A DNA stretch of 64,000 bases from Candidatus Poribacteria bacterium (GCA_965197465.1 OZ240209.1:5078477-5142476), one strand, 5' to 3'. Counted from the stretch's first letter, positions 5,327-44,390 are shown. Translations and numbers: made by a program. Notes: generated from the letters alone by a model not told the origin.

Positions 5327-6178
5327 TCACCTAGGGTTTTTTATGTGCGCCCATGTCGTGACGAGTTTGCCTGTCGGAAAAACGGCTAGCGCAGCAGCCA
5401 ATCCCTCCTCGACAATTTGTCCGAGATCTTCATCGGACAGCGCATGATTAAAGACGGCAACATCGTCAATCATGCCGTCCAGATAGTGTTCGTCACGCGG
5501 CTTTGCCGTTCTTCCAATGTTTAGAGGCGCCCCTTTAGCATTACCCGCCGCGAGGGTGGTGGTCCAGTTTTTCTCGCCAATCAGTTTTCCATCGTAATAC
5601 ATCTTCATTTTGTTTCCGCTGCGCGCCATGGCGTAATGATGCCACTCCATATACTTATAGCGACCAGGGACTTGGGGGCCCATATCCGTACCACCGCCTC
5701 CTCCTCCGCCGCAACCTATACAGAAGTGAAAGTATAATTGTTCGCCGGCGCAGCAATGCCTTAACCTAAACCACCATCCATCCCAGAATACCGCATCCAA
5801 GTGTACAGTTGTATAGCCCATGATGTTGTAACGTCTGTCTTTTCCTCGTTGATCCATAAGGACGTAGGCAGCGATGGTAAAGTCGTCGTCTCCAAATGCC
5901 CAAGCATCGTTGGCGTTCGGCACCTCGACATAACTATCCTCGCCGTCCAGCACTATGCCGCCGCCAAACTTCCCCTTTCCCCAAGTGGCACCTCCCTTGA
6001 GTGTTCCGATGTTCCCATTACGGCTGAGATCTGCGCTTCGCTTTCCCTCACCTTCATCAAAGCTCAACGCGACTATGGCGCTCCTGATATTAATCTCGGC
6101 ATCGCTGGTTTCCATCATCAGACTGAGAGAGACTATTGCCACAGTTACCATGAGTGACGCATAAAGTAGACGTTTCAT
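5327..6178 (-). CDS. Secreted LamG / concanavalin-A-like lectin domain protein
   Basis: Signal peptide. ..LDGEDSYVEVP..DDFTIAAYV.. is a LamG_3-like signature, with a Gly7 linker. The C-terminus ..GKLVTTWAHIKNPR resembles the shared tail motif. Confidence 0.55.
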   Translation of the reverse strand: MKRLLYASLMVTVAIVSLSLMMETSDAEINIRSAIVALSFDEGEGKRSADLSRNGNIGTLKGGATWGKGKFGGGIVLDGEDSYVEVPNANDAWAFGDDDFTIAAYVLMDQRGKDRRYNIMGYTTVHLDAVFWDGWWFRLRHCCAGEQLYFHFCIGCGGGGGGGTDMGPQVPGRYKYMEWHHYAMARSGNKMKMYYDGKLIGEKNWTTTLAAGNAKGAPLNIGRTAKPRDEHYLDGMIDDVAVFNHALSDEDLGQIVEEGLAAALAVFPTGKLVTTWAHIKNPR

Positions 6179-7407
6179 TGGTTCACCTCTTAAAATTACA
6201 GTTCGTTCTCGTATAGCTTGGCCATTTTGAGGACGAACCGGTGATTGGATGTATACGGGTTCAACGCAAGTAACCTGTTAATGCGAACGGCAACATGCCT
6301 AATCCAAAAGTGAGTGCAGCAGGGAAGGGAAGAAACACACCTCATATCACGAAAACGTGCTGAAATTTTCAATGTCACCGCTGTTGAATTCTCGGGTCTG
6401 TCCACGGCAACTCGAGGCCTAGAGCGATCTGCACATAATCTCGATATGAGTCTACGTATGTTTTCAAGTTTACTATATCACATTATATGTTTTTTAATCA
6501 ACCTATCCCCCTTTTTAACTTATACGTTTGAGTTATTCCATTTCCAAATTTATGGGTTTCCAATGCCCGTGATCGGTTGGGTTATAGTTTGGTACATATT
6601 CAACCCGATACACAAAATCACCCCTTTTTGCCTGTCCTTGCCATTTATTTGTTTGGGGGTTAAGGTGGATATTTCGCACTGTGGAATAAGTAATCTTCAG
6701 GTTGCTAGATACTAGCCTATCACCCGAAATTGTTACTAGGGTTTTCTGTTGCTCAAGTTTTACCTGTAGGCAAGCCCTATCGGTTGCTGTGTGTTCTAGT
6801 AATTTACTTAAAACTTCCTCAGTGATTACGCTTGGCATATCTTGACTTATTCATCTATTCGGGGTTGGCTACAACGATCAACATGCCTGAGAATAGCCCA
6901 TAATTGCCCTGTATTCAATTCTTTTGGGGTTTTACGAACGGGTTTTTGCAGATAGCCAATCGCTCCTATTTCATCTTGACAGTTAATCCGTATTCTGTCA
7001 AGATTGAAAATGAGTTACTTCAGCCTTATTATTATACCAAGGGAGATTCCACCATGAAATTACGTGCAAGCGTGTTGATTTTCATTCTCAGTCTGTTGTG
7101 TGTAGAAAATGCAGATAGTACGATTCTAGACCTGAATGGTGTAATGCACTCACCAGAATCCTTCAGGCGTTGAAATTTGACCAGAATTAGTCGGGTTTTA
7201 TTACTAAAATCTCCTTATTTTCTGTATAAAGGATGGGGATAAGTTCACGTTTGGCTACGAGTATTCGCAACAAAAAGGTAACTTTCGGGTAGTAGAACTT
7301 ACCCTTATTGAAATTTTGCTTCATAATTGCTTTACATATGCTTTATATTTTATTGACTTTTTACTTGACACCCTTTTCTGCCAAGTGTTAATATGCCATA
7401 GTCAAAA

Positions 7408-7656
7408 ATGGGTGATTTCAAGTTAGCAGAATTTGAAAACAGAGAGAGGTTTATCATGGGCACAACGAAAAATCCGAAATCTATAAATCAAGTGATTGCA
7501 GAGCCACCAATGTTAGTTACACGTATGGCAATCCCTGAAGATGAGGATGATTTTTTGTACACCGATGAATCTATCGTAGCTTCTTTGAATCGGGCAAGAG
7601 AAGAAATGAGGCAGGGAAAATTCATCCCAAAAGAAGATGTAATAGAAGATGTTTGA
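7408..7656 (+). CDS. Type II antitoxin (RelB/Phd-like; alternative start 7456)
   Basis: Small acidic protein. Overlaps the downstream RelE/ParE toxin gene by 8 nt. AT-rich island. Confidence 0.5.
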   Translation: MGDFKLAEFENRERFIMGTTKNPKSINQVIAEPPMLVTRMAIPEDEDDFLYTDESIVASLNRAREEMRQGKFIPKEDVIEDV

Positions 7657-7903
7657 TTACCGCTTCATCAATGAATCAAGGAAGCAATATAGAAACCTTG
7701 ATGAGCCTACAAAACAACGTGTAAACGAAGCACTGAACGATATAATGGAATCACCGTTCCGAAATCCTCATATTAGCAAGTTGAAGGGAAGGCAAGATGA
7801 ATACAGATATAAACTTGGGGATTATAGGATTGTTTACCATACAGACAAACAGGAGAGAATGTGTACCATCCTTGCAATAGTAAGCCGTGAGGGTGCATAC
7901 TAG
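7649..7903 (+). CDS. RelE/ParE family type II toxin
   Basis: 84 aa with a RelE/ParE-like C-terminus (..GDYRIVYHTDKQERMCTILAIVSREGAY). Confidence 0.7.
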   Translation: MFDYRFINESRKQYRNLDEPTKQRVNEALNDIMESPFRNPHISKLKGRQDEYRYKLGDYRIVYHTDKQERMCTILAIVSREGAY

Positions 7904-8094
7904 ATACTCTTCCCGCCAAAATACCCCTCCATTATCGTGGCAGGTTAAGGAATGGTTTCAGAGTTGAGACTTTTATTGTCCGAAAACTGCCATCGGATTC
8001 GCCCGCTTTTAGTTTTTCTGAGTAGCCCTCGCAACTTTTTTCTAATCTCCCCAGATAGCTATCCATCCCCTAGCTAATCACTCAGTATTCGTGA

Positions 8095-8300
8095 ACTGAA
8101 CTTACCCCCATCCTTTAGACAGAAACTAACGAGATTTAAGTAATAAAATCCGGTTAAACTTGGTCAAATTTCAACGTCTGAGGTTATTGGAAATACACCT
8201 GGTAGGGATCTCTACCGCACGCGCTATCCGCTCGCTTGCTGGTGTACAGTAATCGAGCGATTGATGAAACCGATGTGAGTGTCGATGGGGAGATTCCTGT
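8095..8300 (+). repeat. About 200-bp direct repeat, copy 1 (promoter region plus 5' end of small Cys-motif gene)
   Basis: Near-identical to 20058-20262 (cttacccccatcctttagacagaaactaacgagatttaagtaataaa..ggtagggatctctaccgcac..gtaatcgagcgattgatgaaaccgatgt..). Confidence 0.85.
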
Positions 8301-8424
8301 TTACATTACTAAATCGGGCAAGAAATATCACAGGGAAAATTGCCGTTGGGTAAATAGACCGTTATCATTGGCAAAGGCAAGGGAAATCTACTCGCCATGT
8401 AACAAGTGTAATCCACCGAAGTGA
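8236..8424 (+). CDS. Small Cys-motif protein (..GKKYHxxxC..C-x2-C), putative Zn-binding
   Basis: 62 aa. Paralog of 20197-20472 (N-terminal 25 aa nearly identical). Confidence 0.5.
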   Translation: MLVYSNRAIDETDVSVDGEIPVYITKSGKKYHRENCRWVNRPLSLAKAREIYSPCNKCNPPK

Positions 8425-9200
8425 AGAGGAAGAAAATGTACGAAGAATACATAGACTTTGCTGTAACAGCCAAAGCCCATGTCAGGATTGTACAAGACGC
8501 TCTATTTTCTATAGAAAGTTCCCTAGAAAAGATTGCTGCGAACTACAATAAATGTGTAAACATCTTCAGAGCAGAATTGATTAGAAGAGCGTTGATTCAT
8601 GATAATGATAAGTTCGATGATGATGTTATCATCAATGGGAAGCAAGTACCTTTTCAGTTTGCCGAATACACCGTGGGCTCTGACTATTTCTTTGGCAATG
8701 GAGCTGCAGATATGGAATACGACTCTGAAGAATATCGTAAAATCAAATCAGCGGCGTATGCCGGGCTCAACGCTTTCGATAATCATAAAAAAAAGATTAA
8801 TGATCATCACCCAGAGTACCACGAAGACTGCAAAAAAGACATGAAACTTCTTCCACTAATTGAAATGGTATGCGATTGGTGGGGCTCTACTGCCTACTCT
8901 AATGAAGATCCGAAGTCTAAGTTTCGAGCAGATTCAGCCAAGAATATTTGTCATTATAGTTTTGACGGCTATCAGAAATTCGTAGTAGAACGAACTCGTG
9001 ATTTCATAGACACTCGTGCCGAAGATTTGATTGAAATCATTTACAAAGGGTGTACGAATTACCCGAAAGATTCTATGCCACCGTGTACTTCGGACGCCGA
9101 AAGTCAATTCTATAGAGAATTGAATGATTTTCTCAAAGAACGAATAAATTCACTAGCGCAAGCTAAAGCTAGGCGATCTAAAGCTTGGAAGACACTATGA
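8421..9200 (+). CDS. Hypothetical protein, possible HD-domain phosphohydrolase
   Basis: 259 aa, AT-rich. ..ALIHDNDK.. resembles the HD motif HDxxK, followed by a ..DHHPEYHEDC.. His cluster. GTG start at 8421 or ATG at 8436. Confidence 0.3.
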   Translation: MKRKKMYEEYIDFAVTAKAHVRIVQDALFSIESSLEKIAANYNKCVNIFRAELIRRALIHDNDKFDDDVIINGKQVPFQFAEYTVGSDYFFGNGAADMEYDSEEYRKIKSAAYAGLNAFDNHKKKINDHHPEYHEDCKKDMKLLPLIEMVCDWWGSTAYSNEDPKSKFRADSAKNICHYSFDGYQKFVVERTRDFIDTRAEDLIEIIYKGCTNYPKDSMPPCTSDAESQFYRELNDFLKERINSLAQAKARRSKAWKTL

Positions 9201-9948
9201 CTGAGAATCAGAGACAACACCTGATTGAGGGGTACAAAGCCCTAAGAGCCTGTTTGAGGAGTACATTTGTAGGGTGCGCACTGCGCACCAGCCTCTAAAA
9301 GCCCCAGAGGGGATCAAGCGAGCGAATAGCGAGTGCGATAGAGATCCTAAAGGTGTATAGAAACGCCAAAACCCCGTGCACCAAAGCCCCAGCGTGGGAT
9401 CAAACGAGTGGATAACGAGTGCGATAGAAATCCCACAGGTACGTAGCAGACAACAATAAAAACCTTCCTACAAATGACCAAAAATGGCTTTGCTACCGAT
9501 TATTCAAGCAGGCTCTAATGCAATACGGCGTACAATTGTCTCAAGACCATCTAAATTATGATAGAATAATCATGCCTCTGTCACTTGTCCCGGCTTATTT
9601 TGTATTAACCTCATTGGACGTACGAGAGGCCGGCTGGCCAGCCGAAGTATTGATATGGTGTGCAGGCCCTGTATTATTATTGTTTTGGCATCACCGTAAC
9701 TTGCGAAGCCAGGATAGGCTATATAAACTTTAGGACACAGTAGCCTGCATCAAGAAAAGGCTTTGCATCGTCGCCTACAGCACGGCCCACGATTATATGA
9801 ACGAATCACCCACACGACCTGACTTTAAATTAAAGGCTATGTTTGCTAAGGGTGTAGGATTGATATATTTTCTTGTGTTGTGCTACATGTTCTGGCGTTG
9901 GTCAACATGCTAAAAACGTCCGGTAAGAGCTGTTAAAGGAGGTGCATA

Positions 9949-10287
9949 GTGAATAAAAAGCATTGGTGGTGGATCGTCCCCGTCGCTTGCTTCCTGTTAT
10001 TCTGTTGTTTTAGCGCGTTCATGATATTCGTCGACGACGAATACGAGGGCCGTGTCCACCGAGATTTCGTGCACGTTAGGCTGTCCGAATTGACAAGAGG
10101 CGTTGAATACCCCAGTGAGGAATGGGACGCCGCCGCCGACCGTTACTTGGCCGAATATGATATGGTTATTGAGTCTTTGCCCCTGCGCCCTAAAGTAGAG
10201 CACCGGCTATGGCAGGTCTGGATCCCCATAGTATTCGACTTACGCTTAATTGACCTCTGGTTTTATCTAACAAACCACTTCCGATAA
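9949..10287 (+). CDS. Hypothetical membrane-anchored protein
   Basis: 112 aa. N-terminal TM segment (WWWIVPVACFLLFCCFSAFMIF). Confidence 0.3.
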   Translation: MNKKHWWWIVPVACFLLFCCFSAFMIFVDDEYEGRVHRDFVHVRLSELTRGVEYPSEEWDAAADRYLAEYDMVIESLPLRPKVEHRLWQVWIPIVFDLRLIDLWFYLTNHFR

Positions 10288-10319
10288 TGGCTGTTATGTG
10301 CCACTAGCTATTACGCTCC

Positions 10320-10510
10320 ACGATTTCACCTCATCATTTGTAGTTGTCCCTACCCATAGGTTACCCTGACACGGCACGACCCCACGAATTGTATCAAACT
10401 CACCCTCCGATGTGTCGCAGCGTTTCGTACTTTCCTATCTAACAAGTGAACACCAATGTTCATTTTTTATGCAAGAGGGGCATTGGCAGTTCTCGCAACA
10501 GTGCCTCTGT
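10320..10510 (-). promoter_or_regulatory. Conserved paralog-array leader element (orphan copy, no propeller gene downstream)
   Basis: About 85% identical to 11957-12235 and 46003-46262. Contains the gtgaacaccaatgttcatttttt palindrome. Confidence 0.6.
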
Positions 10511-10534
10511 CTTAACAATTTCTAGGGTGCGTCT

Positions 10535-10717
10535 ATGAAACGCCAGCTCGTTAAGGAAACGGTGATTAACAAGCAGACGCTGCTATTCGTATACACTGGT
10601 GGTGGAGCGTTCGGGCATGAGTTGGGGCTCGTTTTTGACGTTGGAGGAGGCAGAGGCGTTTGCCCGGCGCCACACCCACGGAGGAAAGGTGAACGATGTA
10701 TCAAGACAGGGGGCTAG
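10535..10717 (+). pseudogene. Degraded copy of the small divergent ORF (paralog of 12240-12458)
   Basis: Same N-terminus MKRQLV(K/R)ETVINK.TLLF. A roughly 20-bp deletion relative to 12240-12458 shifts the frame. Confidence 0.4.
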
Positions 10718-10845
10718 CCTCCCATGAATGTTTGAATCCGTACGAGGCGCACCTGTGGTGGCTGCCGATGTTCTTCTGGCGCAGCGCCCCGGATGTGACG
10801 ATGGCGGCGGTTGTTTTATCCTTTCTTCCTACCGCCTCCCCCATT

Positions 10846-11956
10846 TTATTGTTTTTGCTTTATGGCGCCCCAGGTGACGGCGGCTTTGTTGTAGGGTTGA
10901 AGGCGGGGAAAGGCGGCGCGGTAGATGCCCTCGTCCGTGGCGGCGTACAGGTCCGATCGATGGGATACGAGCGAGTCTACTTTGGCGCCGTTTAGTCCTA
11001 CGTAGGACCAGGTTTCGGATCGCTCATTAAACACGTACACGCCCCGGCGTCGAATTGCGGCAAAGATACGGTTGTCATGGGAAACCAGCGCATCTATATA
11101 GGCCCACTGCGAAGCCGATCGGTGATCGCGCGGGTGCGGCGGAAGGCCTTGGACAAGCGGGTGACTCAACGCGTTTTCGTATCGTGCGAAATAGGCGGTT
11201 TCCCCTTCGTCCCCTTCGTGATACTCTGCGGCAACATAGATTCGATTGTTGTGCACCACCCAGGCGGTAGGGAACCGGAGGCTTCCGTGCTGGGGGAGTA
11301 CGAATTCCCATGTGCGGCCGTTGTCTGGCGAACGTACTATCGTATATTTCAGGGCTGCCCACAGATAGCCGTCGAACTCTAGCAACTGGGCGTCATTATA
11401 AGAGAGGTAGTCATCAAGTGCGCCCTCGGCCGGCACGATCCACTCCAGCGTTACGTCCAGCCAGGTCTCGCCCCGGTCGTAAGATATATATATTGGGCCG
11501 CGCATCACGGCGATGACCGCGCCGGAACGTGTGACGAGTATTTGTTTAATCCAGCCGTAATAGGTACCTCCGTCGGCATATTCGAATAGGCGGAGCCCGT
11601 TGTTTATGGGCTTCCATGTCTCCCCCCGGTCGTCGGATCGCAACATGCCGACATCCCTATACGATCCGACATAGATGGTATTTCCATGGACGGTGAATGC
11701 GCTAACACCACGTTCGAATTCGGTCGTACGCCAAGTCCAAGTGGCACCGTTGTCGTCCGAGACTTCAAGTCCGCGCTCTGTCGCGCCGTAGAGGCGGCGC
11801 CCATCGGATTGGAGTCTGTACACACGATTATTGACCTCGGCGCCGCCGACCGGAATCCAGATAGTTTGGATGTCGGCATTCGATTGGTCCGCTAGCATAG
11901 TCATCATTACTAAGAAAATGAAAGCGGTTCGGATAAAACGTCGAGTCCATACCATT
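10846..11956 (-). CDS. Secreted BNR/Asp-box repeat beta-propeller protein
   Basis: Asp-boxes (RSDDRGETW, VSDDNGATW, SYDRGETW, RSPDNGRTW). Signal peptide starts at MVWTRRF, with the start codon at 11954-11956 behind a GGAGG RBS; the upstream in-frame extension to 12138 is probably not translated. C-terminus ..QPYNKAAVTWGAIKQKQ. Confidence 0.7.
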
Positions 11957-12235
11957 GGATTTCCTCCCTTCGAATCGATGGCTATCGGATTGATTGTGTT
12001 AGTAGAACTTGAGCAAGTTTTGTGCCACGCCCATAAGTTGCCGTGACTCGGCAGTATCCCACGAATTATATCAAACTTGCCCAGATGTGTCGCGGCGGTT
12101 TGTACTTTCCTATCTAACAAGTGAACGCCAATGTTCATTTTTTGTGCAAGAGGGGCGTTGGCAGCTATCGCAACAGTGCTTGTGTCTTACAATTTCGTGA
12201 GAGTGCAGGGCGGTGAACGCTCGGTTCAATTTCTA
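11957..12235 (-). promoter_or_regulatory. Conserved leader/promoter element upstream of the BNR gene
   Basis: Shared with 10320-10510, 14255-14381, 38860-39010 and 46003-46262. Palindrome tgaacGccaatgttca followed by T6. Confidence 0.6.
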
Positions 12236-12239
12236 GGAT

Positions 12240-12458
12240 GTGTCTATGAAACGCCAACTCGTTAGGGAAACGGTGATTAACAAGCGGACGCTGCTATTCT
12301 ACCGTCTGGAGAGCGGTTCGTATACGCTGGTGGTGGAGCGTTCGGGCATGAGTTGGGGCTCGTTTGCGACGTTGGAGGAGGCCGAAGCGTTTGCCCGGCG
12401 CCACATGCAGGGAGGGGAGGTGAACGATGTATCAAGACAGGGGGCTAGCCTCCGATGA
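12240..12458 (+). CDS. Small hypothetical protein, divergent from the BNR array
   Basis: 72 aa. Intact counterpart of the degraded copy at 10535-10717. Confidence 0.35.
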   Translation: MSMKRQLVRETVINKRTLLFYRLESGSYTLVVERSGMSWGSFATLEEAEAFARRHMQGGEVNDVSRQGASLR

Positions 12459-12974
12459 ATGTTTGAATCCGTGCAAGGCGCATCTGGGGTGGATACCGAA
12501 TGTTCCGGATCGGTTGGACGAAACCCCGGAGTAGGGTGACATGCTGTGTTTGTGGCCGCTGTTTTTGATGCGACCGGGCGACGGTACGATAGAGCACCGC
12601 GCCGTACACGCAGTGTGCTGATACGGTTCTGAGTGGAAGAGGCAGCCGACGTGCATCCGGCTCATTCGGTCAAGACGATCGACCGCATTAGGGATTCAAT
12701 GAAGGTACCTCTCCTTCGGTCAATCTCCGCATGCGTAGCGTAACAACGCGCCGCCGGAATGGCATTTCAGTCGTACCGCAATGCCGGCTTCGGCGGCATT
12801 GGCAGTTTCGTTCGTACAGTACGTCCAAATCTTCAGTGTCCGCCTTTCCAAATACCATTTCAAGATGGGGATTGTCGGACCGTTATCGGAGTCGGGTGCA
12901 TTGGTGACGGTGAGGCCGATAGGCGGTTCCGAAAAAACGACCTACGAGTAGGAGCAGTAGGATTAGTGGCTTCA

Positions 12975-13397
12975 TTAAGGTGTCCATGTGCGCAGTGTTG
13001 TGCGTCCGCAGCTCCACATTAAATCCCATTCGAGGACCTCGCCGCTGACAGGCGTGAAACGAATGCGGGATATGTCCTCGTTTCCAGCGCTGTACGACAT
13101 CGGACGACGAGGCCCATCGTGTTTAGCTCGTAAATAGCCGATGGGAGCCGAGAAGTAGACAGTGAACGACGCGTCTCCTGTTGCGTCGAATTCAGGGATA
13201 ATGGCACGCTTGGGAACATCATCGGGGGCGCTCCAATCGGCTGTAATGACCTGCATCGGTGGAGATACGCTGACCAGTAGAGCGGGATTGGCATCAAGGA
13301 TTACGTGCGGCACGACGTGGTTATGCTCTTGCGGGTCGTGTTGGTGGTCGCCGCAAGCGAAGAGAACGACCATCAGCAGCAGGCTTAAGCGTATCAT
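12975..13397 (-). CDS. His-rich lipoprotein (paralog family)
   Basis: Lipobox LFAC followed by GDHQHDPQEHNHVVPH. C-terminus ..LMWSCGRTTLRTWTP. Start assigned at MIRLSLLL (start codon at 13395-13397). Confidence 0.55.
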   Translation of the reverse strand: MIRLSLLLMVVLFACGDHQHDPQEHNHVVPHVILDANPALLVSVSPPMQVITADWSAPDDVPKRAIIPEFDATGDASFTVYFSAPIGYLRAKHDGPRRPMSYSAGNEDISRIRFTPVSGEVLEWDLMWSCGRTTLRTWTP

Positions 13398-13417
13398 GTT
13401 TTTCTCCTTTCGCCGGT

Positions 13418-13864
13418 TCACGGCGTCCAAACGGGCACTCGCGCGCTGCCGCAGTTCCAGATTAGTTCGAATTCCAGGTAGCGCCCCGGATAAGTCCGCG
13501 TGGACCACTGCACGTAATCTTGGCCCCCGGCCCCGGTGCCGTACCAGTTTACCGGAGGCGGATGCGGTCCGAGGTAACTAATGTGCACGTATAGCGGCGG
13601 CTTTGAGAAGGTGACGGTGATGACGTGGTCTTCTTTGTCGGCCGGCTCGAGGATAACGGCCTGCTTGACGACCGATGGGTGTGCGTCCCACTCGTCGGTT
13701 ACGGGCTTGAGCGGCGGGTCGATGTCTATGATAATAGCCGCGTCGGCGTCCACAACAAGCTGTGATACGACGTGTTCATGACCGTCGTCATGCTCGTGGC
13801 TGCAGGCGGCGAGTAGTAGCAGGAGTGGGGTTAGGATAAATGTTAAGCCGAGTTTGTTATTCAT
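13418..13864 (-). CDS. His-rich lipoprotein (paralog)
   Basis: LLAAC lipobox, then SHEHDDGHEHVV. C-terminus ..LIWNCGSARVPVWTP. Shares ..ITVTFSKPP.. with the 43978 and 44391 lipoproteins. Confidence 0.55.
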   Translation of the reverse strand: MNNKLGLTFILTPLLLLLAACSHEHDDGHEHVVSQLVVDADAAIIIDIDPPLKPVTDEWDAHPSVVKQAVILEPADKEDHVITVTFSKPPLYVHISYLGPHPPPVNWYGTGAGGQDYVQWSTRTYPGRYLEFELIWNCGSARVPVWTP

Positions 13865-14106
13865 GAATGGGCTCCTTCATTTTTTTTTAACGGCGAGCCA
13901 CCAGGGGGCGGCCAGCGGTTGCTCTTATCCGGCCATATATTCACAATCTGGACGTTCGGGCGGGGGGCGTCCGCCACGACGTGCGGCGGTGGGGATTCCT
14001 CGCCGCAGCCGGTTATCAGGACGACAGCACCGATGAAAAAGAATGCGTATAGGGCGACGATCACCGCCGCCTTAACGATTCGTACGAACAAATTGGAGCC
14101 GTTCAT
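13861..14106 (-). CDS. Small membrane lipoprotein
   Basis: 81 aa. TM segment then a ..ITGCGEE.. lipobox. A truncated relative lies at about 38700-38760. Confidence 0.4.
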   Translation of the reverse strand: MNGSNLFVRIVKAAVIVALYAFFFIGAVVLITGCGEESPPPHVVADAPRPNVQIVNIWPDKSNRWPPPGGSPLKKNEGAHS

Positions 14107-14254
14107 AGGGTTTTCACCTTTTCGGCAGTGTTAGTTCTCATAGCGGCAGCACTTCGTGAAAGTCGATCCGAGTTGAGTGCACAAAATTTGCCGTCTCTTG
14201 TAGAGTTGATAGTTCTTGAATTGATTGCGTTATTCGAGTGTGTGCAAGTTATGC

Positions 14255-14381
14255 GCCACTATCTATCACGCACCAAGGCTGTCCTAGTCCATAAGCTGCC
14301 CTGTATTAGCACTACCCTACGAATTGCATCAAACTCACCTCCTGCTGTGTCTTATTCGTATCTAACAAGCGAACGCTCGGT
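14255..14381 (-). promoter_or_regulatory. Conserved leader element (shorter copy)
   Basis: Aligns to the 5' part of the other leaders (..ccacgaattgcatcaaactcacc..tatctaacaagcgaacgc..). Confidence 0.5.
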
Positions 14382-14882
14382 TCAATGAAGGAGCCGCTCC
14401 GACGGATCTGCGCATGCGTACCGTAACAACGCGCCGCCGGAATGCCATTGCAGTCGTACTGCAAAGCCACCGCCGCCGGCTGCCGCTGTTTCCTCCGTAC
14501 AGTAGGTGGAAATCTTCGGTGTCCGCCCTTCCAAACGCCATCCCGATATGGGTATTGTAGAACGTCCGTCGGGGTCGGGTACGTCGGTGACGGTGAGGTC
14601 GATAGGCAGTTCAGAAAAAAGGACCCAGACCTGCTGCAGCCCCTCGTATGTGAGTTTTCCGATGCCGATTGGTTGTTTATCGCTGACGGATTGGCCCGGG
14701 TCTTCCCAGATGATTTGCGCATCGGGGTATGTGACTGGGGCGTGGGTATGGTCGGCCAGGCTGTGTTCGTGTGCTATGAGCGTATGCTCGTGGGTGTGGT
14801 CGTGTTCGTGTTGGTGGTCTGTTAGCGGGTGGTCGTGGCTGCAGGCGAGGAGGGTGATGAGCAGGAACATGAAGATTCTCAT
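14382..14882 (-). CDS. His-rich lipoprotein
   Basis: Lipobox LLAC followed by SHDHPLTDHQHEHDHTHEHTLIAHEHSLADHTH, a strong metal-binding signature. Confidence 0.55.
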   Translation of the reverse strand: MRIFMFLLITLLACSHDHPLTDHQHEHDHTHEHTLIAHEHSLADHTHAPVTYPDAQIIWEDPGQSVSDKQPIGIGKLTYEGLQQVWVLFSELPIDLTVTDVPDPDGRSTIPISGWRLEGRTPKISTYCTEETAAAGGGGFAVRLQWHSGGALLRYACADPSERLLH

Positions 14883-14896
14883 GAAACTTTGCCTCT

Positions 14897-15915
14897 TTAT
14901 TGTTTTTGCTTTATGGCGCCCCAGGTGACGACGGATTTGATGTGGGGGTGAACGACAGGTATTCTGGCTCGGTAGAGGCCTTTGTCTTCGACGGCGGCGT
15001 ACAGGTAATCCTGATGGGGTATGAGATCGACGACGAGAACATCGTGCAGCCCCGCCTTAACAAACGTTTCGGTGTGGTGGTCAAACTGGTAAACACCGGC
15101 GAAGAGGCGGCCGCGATGCACGGCCAAGCTTGTGAAATGCGGGGAGTCAGGTGAGGGTGGAAGCCCTTCGCTGAAATACTCCCAGTCGTGTTCGTCTTCG
15201 TTCCACCGGCCGAACACGTGGCGGATGACGTACAATCGGCCGTTAAATTCTTGCCAGTCGTCTATGCGGGTGAACTTAAATTTTTTAGTCCATCGCCACG
15301 TTTTGCCTCTGTATGGGGAACGGGTGATACCGCCGGTGGTGGCGGCCCACCAGTAACCGTCGAACTCGGCCATGGACCAGATATCGTGGCTAATGCGAAT
15401 CGTATTGTTAAAGTTCCCGGGAACGCGCCAGAGTTTGTAGGTACTCTTCCACCACTCGCCGCGGTTGGTGGATATATAGGCGCCCGCGTAATACTTGCAG
15501 GTTATGGCGGTGCCGGGGAGCGCGTAACGAGTATTTGGTTTACTTCGGCATACCTGCGCTCGTCGACAAACGGGCCAATGTCAAACGTGTCAATGCCGAC
15601 ACTTTTGTGTTCCCATGTGACGCCGCCGCTGTCGGAGCGGTATAGGCCGTGCTTAAGCGTGCCTGCATAGACGGCATTCTTACCGACGCCTATTGCAGTA
15701 ACGTGGCGGTCCGGCAGGGTTAATCGGAAGGTATAACCGGGGCCCCGGGACATGTAAAATCCGCCCGAATACCCGAGATAGAGGCGGTGCTCGTCGGATT
15801 CAAGGATGGTTGCATAATTCAGATCGTCGAAATCATAGACGAGCTCCCAGTCAACTTGAAGCGCGGCGTGGGCGACGGCAGCGAGTAGCATCGCGAGCAG
15901 AACTAGGTATTTCAT
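14897..15915 (-). pseudogene. BNR propeller paralog disrupted by frameshift/internal deletion
   Basis: N-terminal part (15502-15915, signal peptide MKYLVLLAMLLAAVAHA) and C-terminal part (14897-15373, ..EFDGYWWAA..VVTWGAIKQKQ) lie in different frames. About 70 bp is missing relative to the paralogs. Confidence 0.55.
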
Positions 15916-16943
15916 GGTCGTTTGATTGCTCCCCAGGTGACGGCGGCTTTGTTGTAGGAACTCAAGCGGGGGAAGGACGCGCGGTAGATCCCTTCCTCGG
16001 TGACGGCGTACAGATCGGATTGGTGGGATAAGAGCGAGGTCACGGTCACGCCGTCGAGGCCTGCGGGGAACCACTCTTCGGAGCGCTCGTCGAACACGTA
16101 AACGCCCCGGTTCACGAGTCCGGCGATCACACGACCGCGGTTAAGAACCAAGGCGTTTACCTCGCAACGGAGGGTTACGCCGCTGCTGTCCGGCAACCCG
16201 GCTACGGGATACCGCCACTGGTTGATGCGGTCGAACCGCGTTAAAAACGAGTTGCTCATCGGACCGTACTCCTTGGCGGTGATAAACACGGTATCATCGA
16301 GCACGGCCCAACCGGTAGGCCAAGCGAGCCAACGGAAGACCAGGTTACTATACTCGAAGATGCGAAAGCGGGCATCCTCTTCGGCTTTCAGTACGGCGGC
16401 GGTGGGGCTGCCGTGTTTGTCCAATATCGCGACGCCGCGTCCCACATGCCAGTCGGTGGCGTCGATGCGCCAGTTTCCACCAGCATCGCGCCACAAATTG
16501 CGGCCGTAGGGGGACTCATCGGTGCAGCACGCCATGGCACTGAATACAACGCCGTGAGGGGTGTAGAATTTGTACCGGTAGAGGCCGTAGTCAGCACCAG
16601 CCGGGAAGTCTCTTTGGGTATCGAAAAAGTGCAGCCCGCCGCCGACGTGCTCCCATGTTCTGCCACGGCTATCTGATCGATAGACGCCGTCATAGGCATT
16701 CGAGCCGACATAGACCTCGTCCGGGGTGGCTTCCAACACGCGCACCGGTTGAGTAAATCCGGTTAAACGCCAGGAGTGGCCGTTATCAAAGGACCGGTAG
16801 AGTCCGCGGGCAGTGCCGGCGTAGATGTTGCCGCCGTCACTTTTAATGATGTGCGCCGAATGTTCCGGGCCGTCGATTGGCGTCCAGGGCGAGGCGTGGA
16901 CGGAAGCGGCGAGCAGGATCACGATTAGGCTCAGGTATTTCAT
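15912..16943 (-). CDS. Secreted BNR/Asp-box beta-propeller protein
   Basis: Signal peptide MKYLSLIVILLAASVHA. Asp-boxes. C-terminus ..SSYNKAAVTWGAIKRP. Its stop TGA overlaps the ATG of the next copy (ATGA). Confidence 0.65.
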   Translation of the reverse strand: MKYLSLIVILLAASVHASPWTPIDGPEHSAHIIKSDGGNIYAGTARGLYRSFDNGHSWRLTGFTQPVRVLEATPDEVYVGSNAYDGVYRSDSRGRTWEHVGGGLHFFDTQRDFPAGADYGLYRYKFYTPHGVVFSAMACCTDESPYGRNLWRDAGGNWRIDATDWHVGRGVAILDKHGSPTAAVLKAEEDARFRIFEYSNLVFRWLAWPTGWAVLDDTVFITAKEYGPMSNSFLTRFDRINQWRYPVAGLPDSSGVTLRCEVNALVLNRGRVIAGLVNRGVYVFDERSEEWFPAGLDGVTVTSLLSHQSDLYAVTEEGIYRASFPRLSSYNKAAVTWGAIKRP

Positions 16944-16951
16944 GGTTTCCT

Positions 16952-17449
16952 CTAGCGGATGCCGAGGGTTAGCTTGGACTCGCCGATGGTGTAGAAATCG
17001 TTTCCGCTGATGAAGCTTGATATTTCGACGTCTATGGAGGTCACGATGCCCCGCCATTCGGGGTCGTGATTGTTTTTGTCCCAATCATAGGGCCACGCAT
17101 TGTAAAGGGAACAGTAAAAGTCATCCAATACTTTGGGAAAGATGCCGTAGTAAACGCTTGTGTCGGGGTATACGGTCACGTAGTACGGGGCGTCGTCTAT
17201 GACAAAATTACCGCCATCCCCGCTGAATCCTTTGTACGCAGCCCCCACGCGGACGGCTACCTGATAAGGCAGCGGCTCTCTCGCAACCAGCTTGTAGTGG
17301 TAGTATCTGTCAGAATCGGGAAAGTCCTCCTCCAGGGCTTCCTCGCCGCAGCCGGCTAACAGGCTTAACGCGGCGACGATGAATAGCACGGCGAGCGCAA
17401 TGAGCAGAGACAATTTTATGAGGCGTTCGTAGGCTTCGAAGCTGTGCAT
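16952..17449 (-). CDS. Lipoprotein, unknown function
   Basis: 165 aa. TM/signal then an LLAGCGEE lipobox. Tyr/Asp-rich. Confidence 0.5.
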   Translation of the reverse strand: MHSFEAYERLIKLSLLIALAVLFIVAALSLLAGCGEEALEEDFPDSDRYYHYKLVAREPLPYQVAVRVGAAYKGFSGDGGNFVIDDAPYYVTVYPDTSVYYGIFPKVLDDFYCSLYNAWPYDWDKNNHDPEWRGIVTSIDVEISSFISGNDFYTIGESKLTLGIR

Positions 17450-17750
17450 TTAGGTTGTCCTTGAGAAGTGACGGCATCCGGATAGACAATGACGGGCGAT
17501 AGAGGGCAAGTAGCGTGCCACTAGCGCAAACGCCGTCGCGGGCGTGGTTTTGCGGGGCGGCGGTTACAACAAAATGGACAGTGGTGTTCACTTTGTGTGC
17601 ACTGGCGAGGGTGGAATCGGGTGGGCTATTCTCGCCGGGAAAGGATGAATTAAGGTGAGAGAACGCATCAACCATTGCGATTGGCGGGCATCATAGCAAA
17701 GGTAAAATCGAGGTGTAAACAGAGAAACAATTAAGAAATACCAAGAGAAG

Positions 17751-18116
17751 TTGCAATTCTCATTCCCATCAGCTAAAATAGAGCACCACTTTTTTTGGGA
17801 AGGAGAATTACCAGTGCCGCAACGAACAAGCAAAATCTCGGATACCACACTCGTTGAGATTATCGCAAAACGGCTCCTTGGGGTAACACAGTCGGAAATT
17901 GCGAAAGAGTATGGGGTATCCAAACAAACCATTCAGTATTACGAGACAAAAGAGACCTCGAAGGATTTGAAGAAGATTGTACTTCAAAGGATAGCCGAAA
18001 CTGTGGGTGACGCACTCGGAGAACAGGCGCTTGAGCAACTGGCGATCCGGAAACATGATAAACCCGATAATGAGCCGGATGTACAGAGCGGCAACTTCGG
18101 CTTGAGCGCGAAATGA
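17751..18116 (+). CDS. HTH domain protein (putative DNA-binding)
   Basis: ..LLGVTQSEIAKEYGVSKQTIQYY.. is a classic helix-turn-helix. The start may be internal. Confidence 0.4.
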   Translation: MQFSFPSAKIEHHFFWEGELPVPQRTSKISDTTLVEIIAKRLLGVTQSEIAKEYGVSKQTIQYYETKETSKDLKKIVLQRIAETVGDALGEQALEQLAIRKHDKPDNEPDVQSGNFGLSAK

Positions 18117-18361
18117 AAAAGAGAACTGTTAATGCTATAAAGAAAGCAGTTTTGAATGCCGGCATCCCGTTTACGCTCTGCACGATCATTATAACCGTGG
18201 TGTTCATCGTGGTGATGAGACGAGACCAGATCCACGGTATTGAACTCTTGTACTGGTTTCTGGACTACGCTTTCGATTACATCGGCCTGCTCTGGATGGC
18301 GGCGTTCACCGTGTTCATCTTGGCGCTCTACTTTTACCAGTCGTCGTCCGACGACGAATAA
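18113..18361 (+). CDS. Small 2-TM membrane protein
   Basis: 82 aa with two hydrophobic helices. Overlaps the upstream stop. Confidence 0.35.
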   Translation: MKKRTVNAIKKAVLNAGIPFTLCTIIITVVFIVVMRRDQIHGIELLYWFLDYAFDYIGLLWMAAFTVFILALYFYQSSSDDE

Positions 18362-18389
18362 CCGTCCACGGCCCAATAGGGAGGAAACC

Positions 18390-19241
18390 ATGTTACGCCT
18401 AGCCTTTGTCCTTCTCGCCATTGTCCACGCCGGCTGTTCCCAGCATAAACCCGTCGAAGCGCCCGCCCCCGAGCCGTGGCCAGACGATAAACAGGCGCCT
18501 GTCGTTCATTACTGGCTCACGAACGATTTCGTTGACCTGACCCATAAGGACGTGGTCAAAATCGGCTCCGACATGGCGATAAGCTGCGGCACCGCACAAT
18601 TCCACGTGGGTTCCGGAGCGGCGCGGCACCGCCGAGAAGCGTTGGAGGACAGACTCAACCACTGGTTCGCCTCGATCGTAAAGCGCGTGGACGACGAGAT
18701 GAAGGCCGGAGGCGATGTGCGGGTGGTGCTCCGCCAGCTACAGGACGAGATCGGCCAACCCATCAACATCTTCCTGTCCAACGAAACGCTGACCGCCGAG
18801 GACGGCGGCAGGAGCGGCTTCATGGAACGCCTCGCCGAGGAACTCTACTTCGCCGAACGCACATTGGGAATGTCCCTCGAGCAGTTTGTTTCGGCAGCCT
18901 TTTACCACATTCAGGAAGGGATCGAGGCGGAACGACAAGACGAAGTTACAATAGAACTTCCGCCCGACATCAAAGCCGAGATCGCAGACGCCGAGCACCA
19001 ATTGGAGGACGCCGAAACCATGTGGCACGTCATCGAATCTGGCGTGGCACAGATGGTACGTGCCGAGACCGCATTAAAGGAGGTCGAAGAACTCTTCGAA
19101 GCAAACAGGCCCGGCTTAACCGAATCCGAAATTCGAGAATATGAGCGGCAAATCGGATACGCAAAGAGCGCTTTCCAATCCTTGAAAGAGCAAACCCGGG
19201 AGCTGCTGAAATCGACCGACAAGCAGATCCAACATGAATAG
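18390..19241 (+). CDS. Lipoprotein (paralog 1 of tandem pair)
   Basis: GGAGG RBS then ATG at 18390. Signal peptide ..LLAIVHAGCSQ. ..RREALEDRLNHWF.. is shared with paralog 2. Confidence 0.55.
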   Translation: MLRLAFVLLAIVHAGCSQHKPVEAPAPEPWPDDKQAPVVHYWLTNDFVDLTHKDVVKIGSDMAISCGTAQFHVGSGAARHRREALEDRLNHWFASIVKRVDDEMKAGGDVRVVLRQLQDEIGQPINIFLSNETLTAEDGGRSGFMERLAEELYFAERTLGMSLEQFVSAAFYHIQEGIEAERQDEVTIELPPDIKAEIADAEHQLEDAETMWHVIESGVAQMVRAETALKEVEELFEANRPGLTESEIREYERQIGYAKSAFQSLKEQTRELLKSTDKQIQHE

Positions 19242-20061
19242 CCCGTTCAGACGCCGGCTTTTAGCCGGACTACCTATACTCGCTGTGGCAAGCATCGTCC
19301 TAGCCGCCGGCTGTTGCGCCCACAAAGCAGCCGAACTGCCCTATATCGAGGAAACGATCGTCGCCCAAGTCGCGGGTTTTGCATGGGATACGCGCGATTT
19401 CGTCACGGCCAATAAACAGGGCAATTCCATAGACATGGGCAACATGAATACGACGGCGGACGGCACACGGGCCATGTACGACTACAACAACAGAACCCGC
19501 GAGCGCCGAGAAGCCTTGGTGGCCAGACTCAACGCCTGGTTCAAACCGATCGACCTGAGTGTTCTCACTCTGCTTGTCAACGGTGTCGACCCGCGGAACG
19601 TGATTACCAACTTGCCCGACCATGTCGGCAAGCCCTTCACGCCCTTCCTCTCGCCGGAAACCCTGGCTACCGAGAACCGCGAGGACTTTCTCGAACGCGT
19701 CGCCGATGATCTAGCGTTCGCCGAAGGAGCCTTGCACACCTCGCTGAGCAAATTTAGAGACCATGTGTCGTACTATCTCAAGGAGAAGATCAACAACGCC
19801 CTTGATGAGAAGTTCAAGCACCACCTCGAGCCGCCGAAATCGAAAAAACGCGACCATCCGAGTTACATATACGACCAAACCGCGGAGAAACTGCGACGCC
19901 TGTCCCTCGCCGAGCGCCGCGAATACCTCGAAGCACTGCGCGTGTCGTTGATCGAGGAATATAAAGATTCCCGGGATCCAGAATACCATGAGTTTTTGAT
20001 CCGCAGGTTCCTTCGCACCATGGAGGACCGGGACATCATTTTCGACGAAGAACGATACTGA
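19234..20061 (+). CDS. Lipoprotein (paralog 2 of tandem pair)
   Basis: Signal peptide ..LAAGCCAHK. ..RREALVARLNAWF... Overlaps paralog 1 by 8 nt. Confidence 0.55.
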   Translation: MNSPFRRRLLAGLPILAVASIVLAAGCCAHKAAELPYIEETIVAQVAGFAWDTRDFVTANKQGNSIDMGNMNTTADGTRAMYDYNNRTRERREALVARLNAWFKPIDLSVLTLLVNGVDPRNVITNLPDHVGKPFTPFLSPETLATENREDFLERVADDLAFAEGALHTSLSKFRDHVSYYLKEKINNALDEKFKHHLEPPKSKKRDHPSYIYDQTAEKLRRLSLAERREYLEALRVSLIEEYKDSRDPEYHEFLIRRFLRTMEDRDIIFDEERY

Positions 20062-20262
20062 ACTTACCCCCATCCTTTAGACAGAAACTAACGAGATTTA
20101 AGTAATAAAGTCCGGTTAAACTTGGTCAAATTCAGCGCCTGAGGTTATTGGAAATACACCTTGTAGGGATCTCTACCGCACTCGCTATCCGCTCGCTTGC
20201 TGGTTTACAGTAATCGAGCGATTGATGAAACCGATGTAAGTGTCGATGGGGAGGTTACTGTT
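20058..20262 (+). repeat. About 200-bp direct repeat, copy 2
   Basis: Near-identical to 8095-8300. Confidence 0.85.
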
Positions 20263-20472
20263 TACATTACTAAATCGGGAAAGAAATACCACCTAAAGAA
20301 ATACCACCTGGAGAGTTGCAACTGGGATAATAAGCCTATATCATTGACAGAGGTTAGGGATAGCTATGCTCCATGTGCTGTTTGTAATCCGTCGAAGTGT
20401 TCATGGCTCAAACCCAATAGAATTTCCTTGCTACTTGCCCGTAGCATCGTGTATGATAAGCACATGGTCTAA
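20197..20472 (+). CDS. Small Cys-motif protein (paralog; ..GKKYH..C..C-x2-C)
   Basis: N-terminus MLVYSNRAIDETDVSVDGE..VYITKSGKKYH is identical to 8236-8424. The C-terminus diverges. Confidence 0.45.
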   Translation: MLVYSNRAIDETDVSVDGEVTVYITKSGKKYHLKKYHLESCNWDNKPISLTEVRDSYAPCAVCNPSKCSWLKPNRISLLLARSIVYDKHMV

Positions 20473-20575
20473 TGTGGTCCATTTCTGCCACTCCCCCCAA
20501 TAGGTTGCAATTAGTAGGCTATATCTACCCACTGGCTCGAGTGGGAGCATTTAAGGTAGACTTTAAAGAAGTGTC

Positions 20576-20914
20576 TTGCTTGTCTTAGAACCTGTCGAGG
20601 AGATACGGATGTTTATCAAGACCGAATCTGGTATTATCCTTAATTGGGACGCAATAAGTAAGGTTGTCGTAGAACCACATACTAGTCGAGGTAATACATT
20701 TTTCACTCCTCCGCCGAATTGCAAAGTTGTAGCATACCTAGCACATTCAAATTCACCCATTGTAATTTCGTATTGTCATTTTGCAATGGCAAGAGAGATT
20801 ATGGATGCTATCGAAGAGGCACTAAGTGAGTCCCTCACACATCCCGATTTAGGGTCAATCTTTGCGAAACGACAACTCGCTCGTGAATTAGCAGGGCAGA
20901 ATGCCAATGAGTGA
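20576..20914 (+). CDS. Hypothetical protein (AT-rich island)
   Basis: ORF with a likely start at MFIKTESG. No recognisable domain. Confidence 0.3.
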   Translation: MLVLEPVEEIRMFIKTESGIILNWDAISKVVVEPHTSRGNTFFTPPPNCKVVAYLAHSNSPIVISYCHFAMAREIMDAIEEALSESLTHPDLGSIFAKRQLARELAGQNANE

Positions 20915-21323
20915 CGGGGATCGGGTTTCTCCGCTAAGTTTCAGAATCAAGTATCTGAAATCAGACTTGGTCTTTTTTTCTGTCGTATTATGTGTGTATA
21001 TTTTAATATTATTTCTGGACAAATCTCATACGGGGCTAGAGCGCATAATTTGGATTGTTGATCGTGTTGGCGTAGCTATACCTGTTGCCATTGTATTAAC
21101 ACTATACTTAGAATTAGGAGGGCTAGGTTTCGTGTTGTTAGCAAATTGGTACAACGAAATCCGCAATGCCAAGCGTGAGAAAGAACTTGAAGAGGCCAGA
21201 GAAGAAGGGCGACGTCAAGGACGTGCTGAGGCCGAAGCAGCGATGGAAGCGGCACAACAGGAGTCGTATGATGAAACTGCTTCCGATGCAGGAAACGAAT
21301 CCAGCTCGGACGAATCAGAGTGA
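20901..21323 (+). CDS. Hypothetical membrane protein with charged C-terminal tail
   Basis: Two or three TM helices, then a KREKELEEAREEGRRQGRAEAEAAMEAAQQE.. charged coil. Confidence 0.35.
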   Translation: MPMSDGDRVSPLSFRIKYLKSDLVFFSVVLCVYILILFLDKSHTGLERIIWIVDRVGVAIPVAIVLTLYLELGGLGFVLLANWYNEIRNAKREKELEEAREEGRRQGRAEAEAAMEAAQQESYDETASDAGNESSSDESE

Positions 21324-21401
21324 TTGGTTCGACATTTCGCACGCCGTGTTCTAATCCCTAGTTGTAAAGTTCTCCTGCGCCTATATTTACTTACTCAACA
21401 T

Positions 21402-21740
21402 CTAGTATGACTCCAACACTTGCTTAATCACTTTTCTCATCCCCTTTGTCGAGTTTGCGATATTGCACCCGCTATTCCCCTTTAACAATGGGTAGGTAGA
21501 ATTATATGGAGATTCCCTACCTTCTGTTAGCACTTCACAGATCGCTTCGCAAATCGGGGGAAGTGTTTTGACTGCCGATTCAACTTTGCCCAACAGTTCA
21601 TTCTCAATGACTACATTTGAGGGAAATCGTAATCGGGTTTCCTCAAGTGCCAACACATAATCATCTTTCAATTCTGCCTGCTGTTCATAATTACGAAGCC
21701 CAGCCTTGACTGACGCCACGCAGTCTGTTCGACAAAGCAA
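21402..21740 (-). CDS. Hypothetical protein
   Basis: 112-aa ORF in the AT-rich island. No recognisable domain. Confidence 0.25.
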   Translation of the reverse strand: MLCRTDCVASVKAGLRNYEQQAELKDDYVLALEETRLRFPSNVVIENELLGKVESAVKTLPPICEAICEVLTEGRESPYNSTYPLLKGNSGCNIANSTKGMRKVIKQVLESY

Positions 21741-21789
21741 AATCGCTGAAATTGCCTATGTCCCTTGCCTCCTTGTGGTCACGTGTCGC

Positions 21790-23598: not shown

Positions 23599-23959
23599 AC
23601 GGATTTATGCCTTCTACAAGGGTTGGCTATTTAGCTATTCCTGTATTAGTGGTTTTCTCGCCGAGTGAATAGGGTAAGTGTTGGGTGTCGATATTTAACA
23701 TTGTCTGAACTGTGATTCATGGGATCTCTATGGGATTTCTATCGCAGTCACTATTCGTTCCTTTCATCACTCGCTATTCGCTCGCTTGATTGGTCGGTTG
23801 ATTCTACGGAGTTGCGAGTAAAACTCGCTCCTACAGAGGACACGCAATAAATGAAGATCCCATCTTCGATTTGACGATCGAAGGGCGCTACTGTAAACCG
23901 AACTGCGTAAATCCTATATGTTTAATTCTTAGTTGCACTGACTATAGTAGCGAATTGGG

Positions 23960-25429: not shown

Positions 25430-25699
25430 GTGCTCACAATCTTCCTAAAATATCTATTCGCCAAGAATTTATGGTAGGTATTGGGCGTCGGAAGTTTACA
25501 TTGTCTGAATTGTGATTCATGGGATTTCTATCGCACGGGATCTACTATCGCGTTCCCTATCCGGTCACTTGATCGCTCCGCTGGAGCGAAAGAGTGAGCG
25601 ATTCAATTCTGATTAGAAATCCGTTGGGTTTAATAAGGCAGTAACTCCGGTCATTTATGACAATGGGTTTGCTGCCCATCTGATGCAGTCCATCGGTTT

Positions 25700-42608: not shown

Positions 42609-42619
42609 GGTGCCTCCTT

Positions 42620-44370: not shown

Positions 44371-44390
44371 GGTGTAGGGCCTCCTTGTTC

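Follow-up and report, generated by a model that had tools for sequence, protein, structure and literature searches.

Conserved heads of two paralogous small genes at a hypervariable Candidatus Poribacteria site identified as decayed ends of an IS3-family element

The 64,000-nucleotide stretch of Candidatus Poribacteria bacterium DNA analysed here (GCA_965197465.1 OZ240209.1:5078477-5142476; hereafter the window) contains a pair of direct repeats, each of which forms the conserved head of a small Cys-motif gene followed by different downstream DNA. The original prediction had likened this arrangement to a cassette or shufflon-like locus, or to a targeted insertion hot spot. Judged by their sequence, the heads are decayed right ends of an insertion sequence (IS) of the IS3 family, of whose 1309 bp copies 1 and 2 retain 144 nt and a third, inverted copy 85 nt. 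We consider it highly probable that IS decay shaped the locus, together with homologous recombination in which IS remnants and small-gene paralogues took part, at a hypervariable site and with no dedicated site-specific machinery. A candidate cassette system is thereby replaced by a concrete annotation.

The direct repeat is real and is not attributable to chance. Alignment of 8095-8331 with 20057-20292 gave 225 identical positions out of 236 with one 1-nt gap (approximately 95% identity), so that the repeats are longer than the roughly 200 bp first noted (8095-8300 and 20058-20262). A repeat search over 7000-22500 returned two adjoining families, 8095-8170/20057-20132 and 8167-8331/20128-20292, with the 1-nt indel between them. 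Each repeat consists of the 141 nt that lie 5' of a TTG-started open reading frame (ORF) together with its first 32 codons; the original prediction had about 140 bp of upstream DNA and ~25 codons. The two ORFs, 8236-8424 (62 aa) and 20197-20472 (91 aa), are paralogous along the whole Cys-motif domain, and the divergence that had been described downstream was also found, since identity is far from even along the pair. It is 96-97% over the first ~180 nt, which are IS-derived, 91% over the 55 nt that follow (codons 1 to 18 of the small-gene core) and 67% over the last 90 nt of the small ORF, past ...AAGAAATAYCAC (8331); 3' of both stop codons it is at the random level (38%). At the point where identity is lost, copy 2 carries a perfect 15-nt tandem duplication (AAAGAAATACCACCT twice, at 20280-20294 and 20295-20309), as a result of which KKYHL occurs twice in its metal-binding motif. 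The third copy of the head is inverted, spans 85 nt (7163-7247) and is 86% identical to copy 1.

The identity of the head was established from its relatives. A scan of one genome per species for a 20-mer of the head (CCCCATCCTTTANACAGAAA) returned 36 loci, five of them isolated chance matches in unrelated taxa and 31 in approximately 15 Candidatus Poribacteria genomes, eight being the most found in any one of them. At most of the Poribacteria loci the flanks are dissimilar up to the bases TGAAC, after which ~1.3 kb is near-identical; 14-16 loci are full ~1.3-kb IS copies, and the rest include short derivatives and truncated solo ends. OZ252032.1 alone holds eight near-identical copies, seven full-length and one cut by the end of the locus, which are collinear for 1290-1300 nt. 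From the seven, the full element was defined as 1309 bp with ends TGAACTTACCCCC...GGGGGTAATTACA, or, read from the head side, TGAACTTACCCCCATCCTTTAGACAG... and ...CTGTCTAGTTTTTGGGGGTAATTACA. Its terminal inverted repeats are imperfect and of the TG..CA type (right inverted repeat, IRR, TGAACTTACCCCCATCCTTTAGACAG; left inverted repeat, IRL, TGTAATTACCCCCAAAAACTAGACAG), and 3-bp target duplications (ACC, TGT, GAC, AAG and TAA) flank five of the seven copies. In one full copy (L012 3829-5137), Pfam matched orfA to HTH_Tnp_1 (3.7e-8) and orfB to HTH_21, rve (6.7e-20) and rve_3; orfB is intact in the copy at L011. Short derivatives that keep both ends also occur, of ~135 bp (L014 3604-3740) and ~385 bp (L021 3911-4300), and resemble miniature inverted-repeat transposable elements (MITEs) in being non-autonomous.

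Members of the IS3 family are 1.2-1.55 kb long, with imperfect 5'-TG...CA-3' terminal inverted repeats and target duplications of 3-5 bp. They encode an rve DDE transposase preceded by an HTH_Tnp_1 orfA, and the two frames are joined by programmed frameshifting at an A-rich site; in the textbook arrangement orfB lies in the -1 frame and the site is an A6G motif. We take the architecture of the 1309-bp element, on established knowledge of the family, to be that of IS3. The full copies share with the IS3, IS911, IS150 and IS407 types their size, TG/CA ends, 3-bp duplications and an orfA (HTH_Tnp_1)/orfB (rve) pair in different frames at an A-run. They depart from the textbook -1/A6G arrangement in that the two ORFs overlap at an A9 run (IS positions 381-391 in the L012 and L011 copies), where orfB is found in frame +1 and not -1. 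Both ORFs also contain in-frame stops that are common to the eight OZ252032.1 copies. The +1 frame and these stops could stem from transcriptional slippage, from copies that are inactive or from homopolymer errors of long-read assemblies. The element has no name as yet; its ends and target duplication are newly defined here, it is widespread in Candidatus Poribacteria (sponge symbionts and relatives), and a literature search on Poribacteria IS elements returned nothing relevant.

When the full IS was aligned to the window with blastn, IS positions 1166-1309 matched at 8097-8276 and at 20059-20237, each match being split by a 38-nt insert, and IS 1258-1309 matched at 7196-7247; closer IS copies extend this third match to 7163 (IS 1222-1309). 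All three remnants start exactly at the terminal base of the IS, and the flanks differ directly outside TGAAC. Compared with the heads of full-length IS copies from 15 Poribacteria genomes, those in the window are 79-87% identical. The head corresponds to the end that lies 3' of orfB, on the IRR side; it is read inwards from the terminus and is therefore antisense to the transposase. Set against the IS3 family, the window has three truncated right ends only, with neither transposase nor left end: blastn and Pfam scans found no further IS3 sequence and no IS3 transposase ORF in the 64 kb, and no other IRL- or IRR-like 26-mer was present at up to 8/26 mismatches, either there or in contig L037 (see below). 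Two of the window remnants differ further in having a REP-like insert nested within them and an internal fusion to a small gene that is unrelated to the IS. The parts are the following.

8097..8203, plus strand: copy 1, IS segment A, comprising the IRR terminus (TGAACTTACCCCCATCCTTTAGACAG) and subterminal non-coding DNA (blastn to L012 IS 1200-1309)
8204..8241, plus strand: copy 1, nested 38-nt REP-like repeat, in the loop of an ACACC..GGTGT hairpin at the transposase stop-codon region and holding the TTG at 8236 that opens the 62-aa ORF
8242..8276, minus strand: copy 1, IS segment B, the last 11 orfB codons (..RFHQSLDYCTP; blastn IS 1166-1201, 89%); IS homology ends at 8276
8275..8424, plus strand: copy 1, small-gene core, VYITKSGKKYH..C..PC..C; GTG 8275 is a possible start, and the ORF is open from TTG 8236 through IS sequence
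20059..20237, plus strand: copy 2, IS3 right-end remnant; its REP-like insert is at 20165-20202
20236..20472, plus strand: copy 2, small-gene paralogue with the 15-nt tandem duplication and a longer C-terminal tail
7163..7247, minus strand: copy 3, solo IRR-end remnant of 85 nt, whose outer terminus (7247) faces a toxin-antitoxin module

Because 8242-8276 encodes the transposase C-terminus on the minus strand, the N-terminal LVYSNRAIDE of the 62-aa ORF is the antisense of a transposase tail, and since stop codons lie just upstream of RFHQSLDYCTP in the minus-strand frame, the transposase gene is not continued in the window. IS bases also end neighbouring frames: the first bases of copy 2, TGA (20059-20061), are the stop codon of a 275-aa ORF (19234-20061), and copy 3 supplies the stop codon (7171-7173) of a small signal-peptide ORF (7055-7173).

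A third junction of the same kind was found outside the window. One profile match to the small protein (P0005), which begins MYIDRAIDETDVSVDGEV..., reads through the same IS tail; it lies on contig L037, a metagenome scaffold from the European Nucleotide Archive. L037 has the IS terminus, the REP-like insert, the IS tail, the same junction and the small gene, and differs in the left flank, the 3' half of the gene and the downstream genes. The expectation of a conserved head with swappable downstream genes was thus partly borne out, in that gene 3' ends and neighbours differ in three contexts; the head itself is a truncated IS3 end. Nor are there only two copies, the outcome on which the idea was to be given up: the departure is in the opposite sense, the head being the end of a multicopy mobile element found across the phylum. 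In most genomes (scan of one per species) it is followed by a transposase gene; the small Cys gene was found behind it in the two window contexts and in L037.

Every pair among the three composites gives the same profile, namely 94-97% identity in the IS part, 87-93% in the 5' part of the gene and 67-70% in its 3' part. Synonymous divergence (dS) is 0.1-0.3 in the 5' part of the gene and 0.7-1.1 in the 3' part, where the ratio of non-synonymous to synonymous divergence (dN/dS) is 0.3-0.5. Such values indicate that the 3' halves are old paralogues under some purifying selection, and the comparison argues that the 5' module is of much more recent common origin than the 3' halves. L037 and a second contig, L043, each contain a 5'-truncated fragment of the copy 1 (C1) type of small gene which starts at the window equivalent of ~8338, a few bases from the collapse of identity at 8331. 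That three independent composites have their breakpoint in common at the KKYH codons is mildly unusual; it could reflect a preferred crossover point or selection. Diversification of the kind produced by diversity-generating retroelements was considered for the variable part and rejected, as all substitution types occur in it, its dN/dS is 0.3-0.5 and none of the scanned ORFs is a reverse transcriptase.

The composites lie in a segment that differs from strain to strain. Its main features and conserved neighbours are given below.

5327-6178: Laminin_G_3 gene, conserved left neighbour of the segment
6489..21731, no strand: strain-specific 15.2-kb segment with three IS remnants, a toxin-antitoxin pair, DUF5662, a BNR-like array and small hypothetical genes
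7408..7903, plus strand: antitoxin and ParE/RelE-family toxin pair (ParE_toxin 8.5e-11 in Pfam; RelE-like toxin 1.2e-16 in PHROG), between the outer ends of copies 3 and 1
8421..9200, plus strand: DUF5662 gene, 259 aa, directly 3' of copy 1 (Pfam E 6.7e-15)
21790-23598: 602-aa gene, conserved right neighbour of the segment

Using orthologues of the 602-aa protein (86-90% identity) to retrieve strain contigs, we found that L038 and L039 have 48 bp between the Laminin_G_3 and 602-aa genes, against 15,243 bp in the window (6489-21731), and that the site holds different contents in at least six strains. L040 has ~1 kb with a HicB-like gene. In L042 the signal-peptide ORF is followed by copy 3, then, directly against the outer terminus of that copy, by the 3' fragment of a small Cys gene of the L037 type, and lastly by a toxin-antitoxin pair. 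L043 has the C1-type fragment, here decayed, then DUF5662 and a 152-aa gene, beside the 602-aa gene. What L041 has in common with the window includes at least 21148-23599. L037 represents this site as well, its flank on the left being equal to window 6470-6504, and after the composite it has a toxin-antitoxin pair, the truncated C1-type fragment and DUF5662; the last also occurs without the small gene, in L021. The suggestion of a targeted insertion hot spot therefore stands, as related strains hold 48 bp, ~1 kb or other gene sets in place of the 15.2 kb. In a further contig (L033, OZ242354.1) synteny extends precisely as far as the outer terminus of copy 3, and an intact IS630-like transposase gene then occupies the place that the ParE/RelE pair has in the window; the copy 3 remnants of L033 and L042 are orthologous to that of the window. 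Since the L033 and L042 junctions fall at the IS terminus and ORF stops are made from IS bases, IS termini appear to have served as rearrangement breakpoints throughout the locus. IS110-, ISL3-, IS1595- and IS66-type transposase genes were seen nearby in L038 and L039.

Based on these comparisons, we infer the following order of events and role for recombination. A REP-like 38-nt element would have inserted into the tail of an IS, and a single past deletion would have fused the IS interior, that is, the antisense 3' end of the transposase gene, to a small Ada-N-like gene, which thereby lost the N-terminal leader present in most proteins of the domain family. The chimeric 5' module (IS tail plus ~18 core codons) is now joined to at least three diverged small-gene 3' halves. 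Homologous recombination between dispersed IS copies may swap the left flank, which would explain why that flank always changes exactly at the IS terminus, while recombination or deletion between tandem small-gene paralogues may swap the 3' half and everything downstream. Copy 1 looks like a product of this second process, in view of the ~8338 start of the C1-type fragments near the drop in identity at 8331 and of the duplication in copy 2; it would have kept the leftmost 5' module and acquired the 3' half of a downstream paralogue.

Several observations weigh against this account. The three composites lose identity at nearly one place, which random recombination does not predict, and neither a recombination intermediate nor a population variant was observed. 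The closest full IS copies found are no more than 79-87% identical to the window heads, and the source genome is represented by the 64-kb window alone, both for full IS copies and for further composites. The small gene of L037 has lost its His ligand (KYY). The plus strand of the head showed no sigma-70-like promoter, and the chimeric ORFs are putative genes. A stronger version of the proposal, in which the IS tail and ~18 codons act as a portable homology handle for recombinase-independent swapping of 3' halves and cargo, with a preferred crossover at the KKYH codons, is in our estimation rather unlikely; if true, it would amount to IS-remnant-based modular gene exchange (toxin-antitoxin modules, DUF5662, small ORFs) at one Poribacteria hot spot.

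The alternatives were weighed against the same data. A Campbell-type integration, by which circular DNA carrying an IS-tail/small-gene module recombined with a chromosomal module, added ~12 kb and left hybrid genes at the junctions, would account for one 5' module with different 3' halves in both copies, for the 15-nt duplication at the copy 2 breakpoint and for the extra 11.75 kb (9944-21694, containing copy 2) that the window has relative to L043. That extra segment, however, is offset from the repeats by ~1.7 kb instead of being bounded by them, and the place of DUF5662 does not fit: in L037 and L043 it goes with the C1 3' half, but in the window it lies after the left copy and not after the right one as the integration predicts. 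ORF scans found no plasmid or phage genes in the segment, and its BNR-like array has a paralogue within the window, at 39-46 kb; we consider this origin unlikely. It is quite improbable, too, that the head and small gene (~330 bp, perhaps with cargo) form a non-autonomous unit, MITE-like or a transporter IS, moved in trans by IS3 transposase through the IRR and a surrogate end. The left boundary does fall exactly at the IS terminus in three contexts, and the family makes the short two-ended derivatives described above (135 bp in L014, 385 bp in L021), but neither the 64-kb window nor L037 yielded a second inverted repeat within 8/26 mismatches, no target duplication flanks any of the three head-plus-gene units, and identity that falls from 96% to 67% along the unit is unlike a recent transposition of the whole.

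Head sequence conserved in non-coding DNA 5' of an ORF might also serve the small genes as a cis-regulatory leader or as a small RNA, and it contains a hairpin with compensatory changes among IS subfamilies. On the transposase strand a U-run comes after this hairpin, which has decayed in the window copies; from its sequence it reads as a transposase terminator and not as a small-gene leader. In most genomes it is the transposase gene, not the small gene, that follows the head; a promoter-like site is missing from its plus strand; and neither Rfam at gathering thresholds nor a tRNA scan gave a match over the window. We regard a leader as very unlikely. The least plausible reading, to which we give almost no credence, is a site-specific cassette system, integron-like or a shufflon, with the head as its recombination site. 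Like chromosomal integron arrays and shufflons, the locus combines a repeat and variable downstream genes with toxin-antitoxin modules and small AT-rich ORFs. It differs from them in that an IS3 end and the antisense of the transposase C-terminus account for every base of its repeat, and Pfam found among ~58 island and window ORFs no integrase (integron integrase included), invertase, resolvase or other tyrosine or serine recombinase, and no reverse transcriptase. Outside the island the scan covered ORFs of 100 aa and more; of the 54 mechanical ORFs that reach 150 aa it included all but ~19, which mostly overlap scanned genes in other frames. The only other mobile-element gene in the window is an IS630-like ORF pair (60134-61169), the first ORF matching HTH_33, HTH_23 and HTH_32 and the second (60570-61169) overlapping it. 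Repeat searches found no repeat recurring at the boundaries between other island genes and no attC- or sfx-like element there; the search for attC-like palindromes was made without a dedicated attC covariance model, and the head is itself not palindromic. The only inverted pair, 7163-7247/8097-8181, consists of IS ends of unequal length, and copy 3 is kept in place in L033 and L042; no evidence for inversion was found. With neither recombinase nor boundary repeats, second IS end or target duplication, the integron-, shufflon- and MITE-like readings each fail a defining feature, and IS decay with homologous recombination remains the preferred explanation.

For annotation, the locus illustrates that decayed IS ends can mimic a conserved gene head, a point of use when long-read metagenome-assembled genomes are annotated and spurious N-terminal extensions of small ORFs through IS remnants are to be avoided. 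It also documents in detail how variable an intergenic site can be: the length is 48 bp in some strains and as much as 15 kb in another, and IS remnants, toxin-antitoxin modules and small genes turn over there.

The small gene to which the IS tail is fused encodes, from 8275 onward in copy 1, VSVDGEIPVYITKSGKKYHRENCRWVNRPLSLAKAREIYSPCNKCNPPK. The window proteins matched nothing in Pfam, NCBIfam or PDB by sequence, and a word-indexed homologue search gave no candidates. A profile of the two paralogues used in a full HMMER search retrieved 1631 proteins at E<=1e-3 among 1.84 billion representatives. These relatives usually have one to three copies of the motif at the C-terminus, and are SNase-like proteins, metallo-beta-lactamase proteins or small proteins that begin with a signal-peptide-like leader; Pfam gave sub-threshold matches to Ada_Zn_binding and DUF6233, and the ligand-like H, C, C and C are kept across 16 family members. 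An AlphaFold model (pLDDT 80) had as best PDB folds the Ada structures 1zgw and 1u8b, weakly matched (TM 0.53-0.59, E 0.7-0.9, probability ~0.6). The weak matches of the HMM and structure searches, which had been proposed for the 62-aa protein, suggest that the gene encodes a stand-alone Ada-N-like putative zinc domain with H/C-C-C ligands, widespread elsewhere. The H/C-x..-C-x2-C ligand pattern is common to it and to the Ada N-terminal zinc domain (PF02805), from which the window proteins differ in having His, not Cys, as first ligand. The same ligand pattern is found in the TGxKYHxxxCRYL...PCxxCxPP domain on secreted SNase-like and metallo-beta-lactamase (ComEC-like) proteins. Unlike most small members of the family, the window proteins stand alone, with no signal peptide or linker; IS sequence takes the place of the leader, and the sole start codon common to all three composites is the TTG inside the REP-like insert (20197 in copy 2). 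Scans of metagenomes for the 5' 28-mer of the gene and of viral sequences for the head each returned 0 matches. A literature search on 'sunset domain', a possible name for the zinc domain, led to nothing relevant.

The 38-nt REP-like element (33-38 nt inside the head; consensus ~GGGATCTCTATCGCACTCGCTATTCGCTCGCTTGATC) is dispersed well beyond the heads. Four matches at three or fewer mismatches were found in the window, where none is expected, and looser copies, of which there are at least 11-18, lie on both strands. The element is neither palindromic nor hairpin-like, and copies are often tandem, as overlapping pairs offset by 17-23 nt. Several further Poribacteria loci contain it too, and in OZ242354.1 an IS copy (L007) has the same insert in the same place. 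Positions in the window are as follows.

REP-like repeats, both strands: 1591-1628, 3005-3047, 4090-4275, 8204-8241, 9310-9440, 20165-20202
REP-like repeats, both strands, continued: 23731-23791, 25520-25574, 28606-28643, 51360-51397, 55529-55761, 57159-57213

A 115-nt inverted pair (1543-1657/9283-9397, 94% complementarity) combines a GTAGGGTGCGCACTGCGCACC-type hairpin with the REP-like element and may be a composite MITE-like element; a related hairpin is present at 46475-46521.

Among the other genes of the island, the 259-aa protein encoded 3' of copy 1 had been proposed as a possible HD-domain protein. Pfam and PDB sequence searches matched no HD family, and the DUF5662 match given above takes the place of that assignment. 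The three small ORFs 3' of copy 2 had no family match in Pfam, NCBIfam or PHROG. Both downstream regions are AT-rich, as had been pointed out: the GC content averages 0.52 over the window but is 0.41-0.45 at 8-10 kb and 0.44-0.47 at 20-22 kb. Array I of the island (10300-17450), which consists of BNR/Sortilin-like lipoprotein genes, is paralogous to the array at 38900-46250 (60-91% nucleotide identity in blocks), which suggests an intragenomic segmental duplication rather than a foreign origin. Toxin-antitoxin modules (ParE/RelE, HicAB-like and PhdYeFM with PIN) recur at variable sites in these genomes, and the window itself encodes, at 31352-31636, a HicB-like antitoxin with 40% amino acid identity to the product of the gene that fills the site in L040 (8996-9322).

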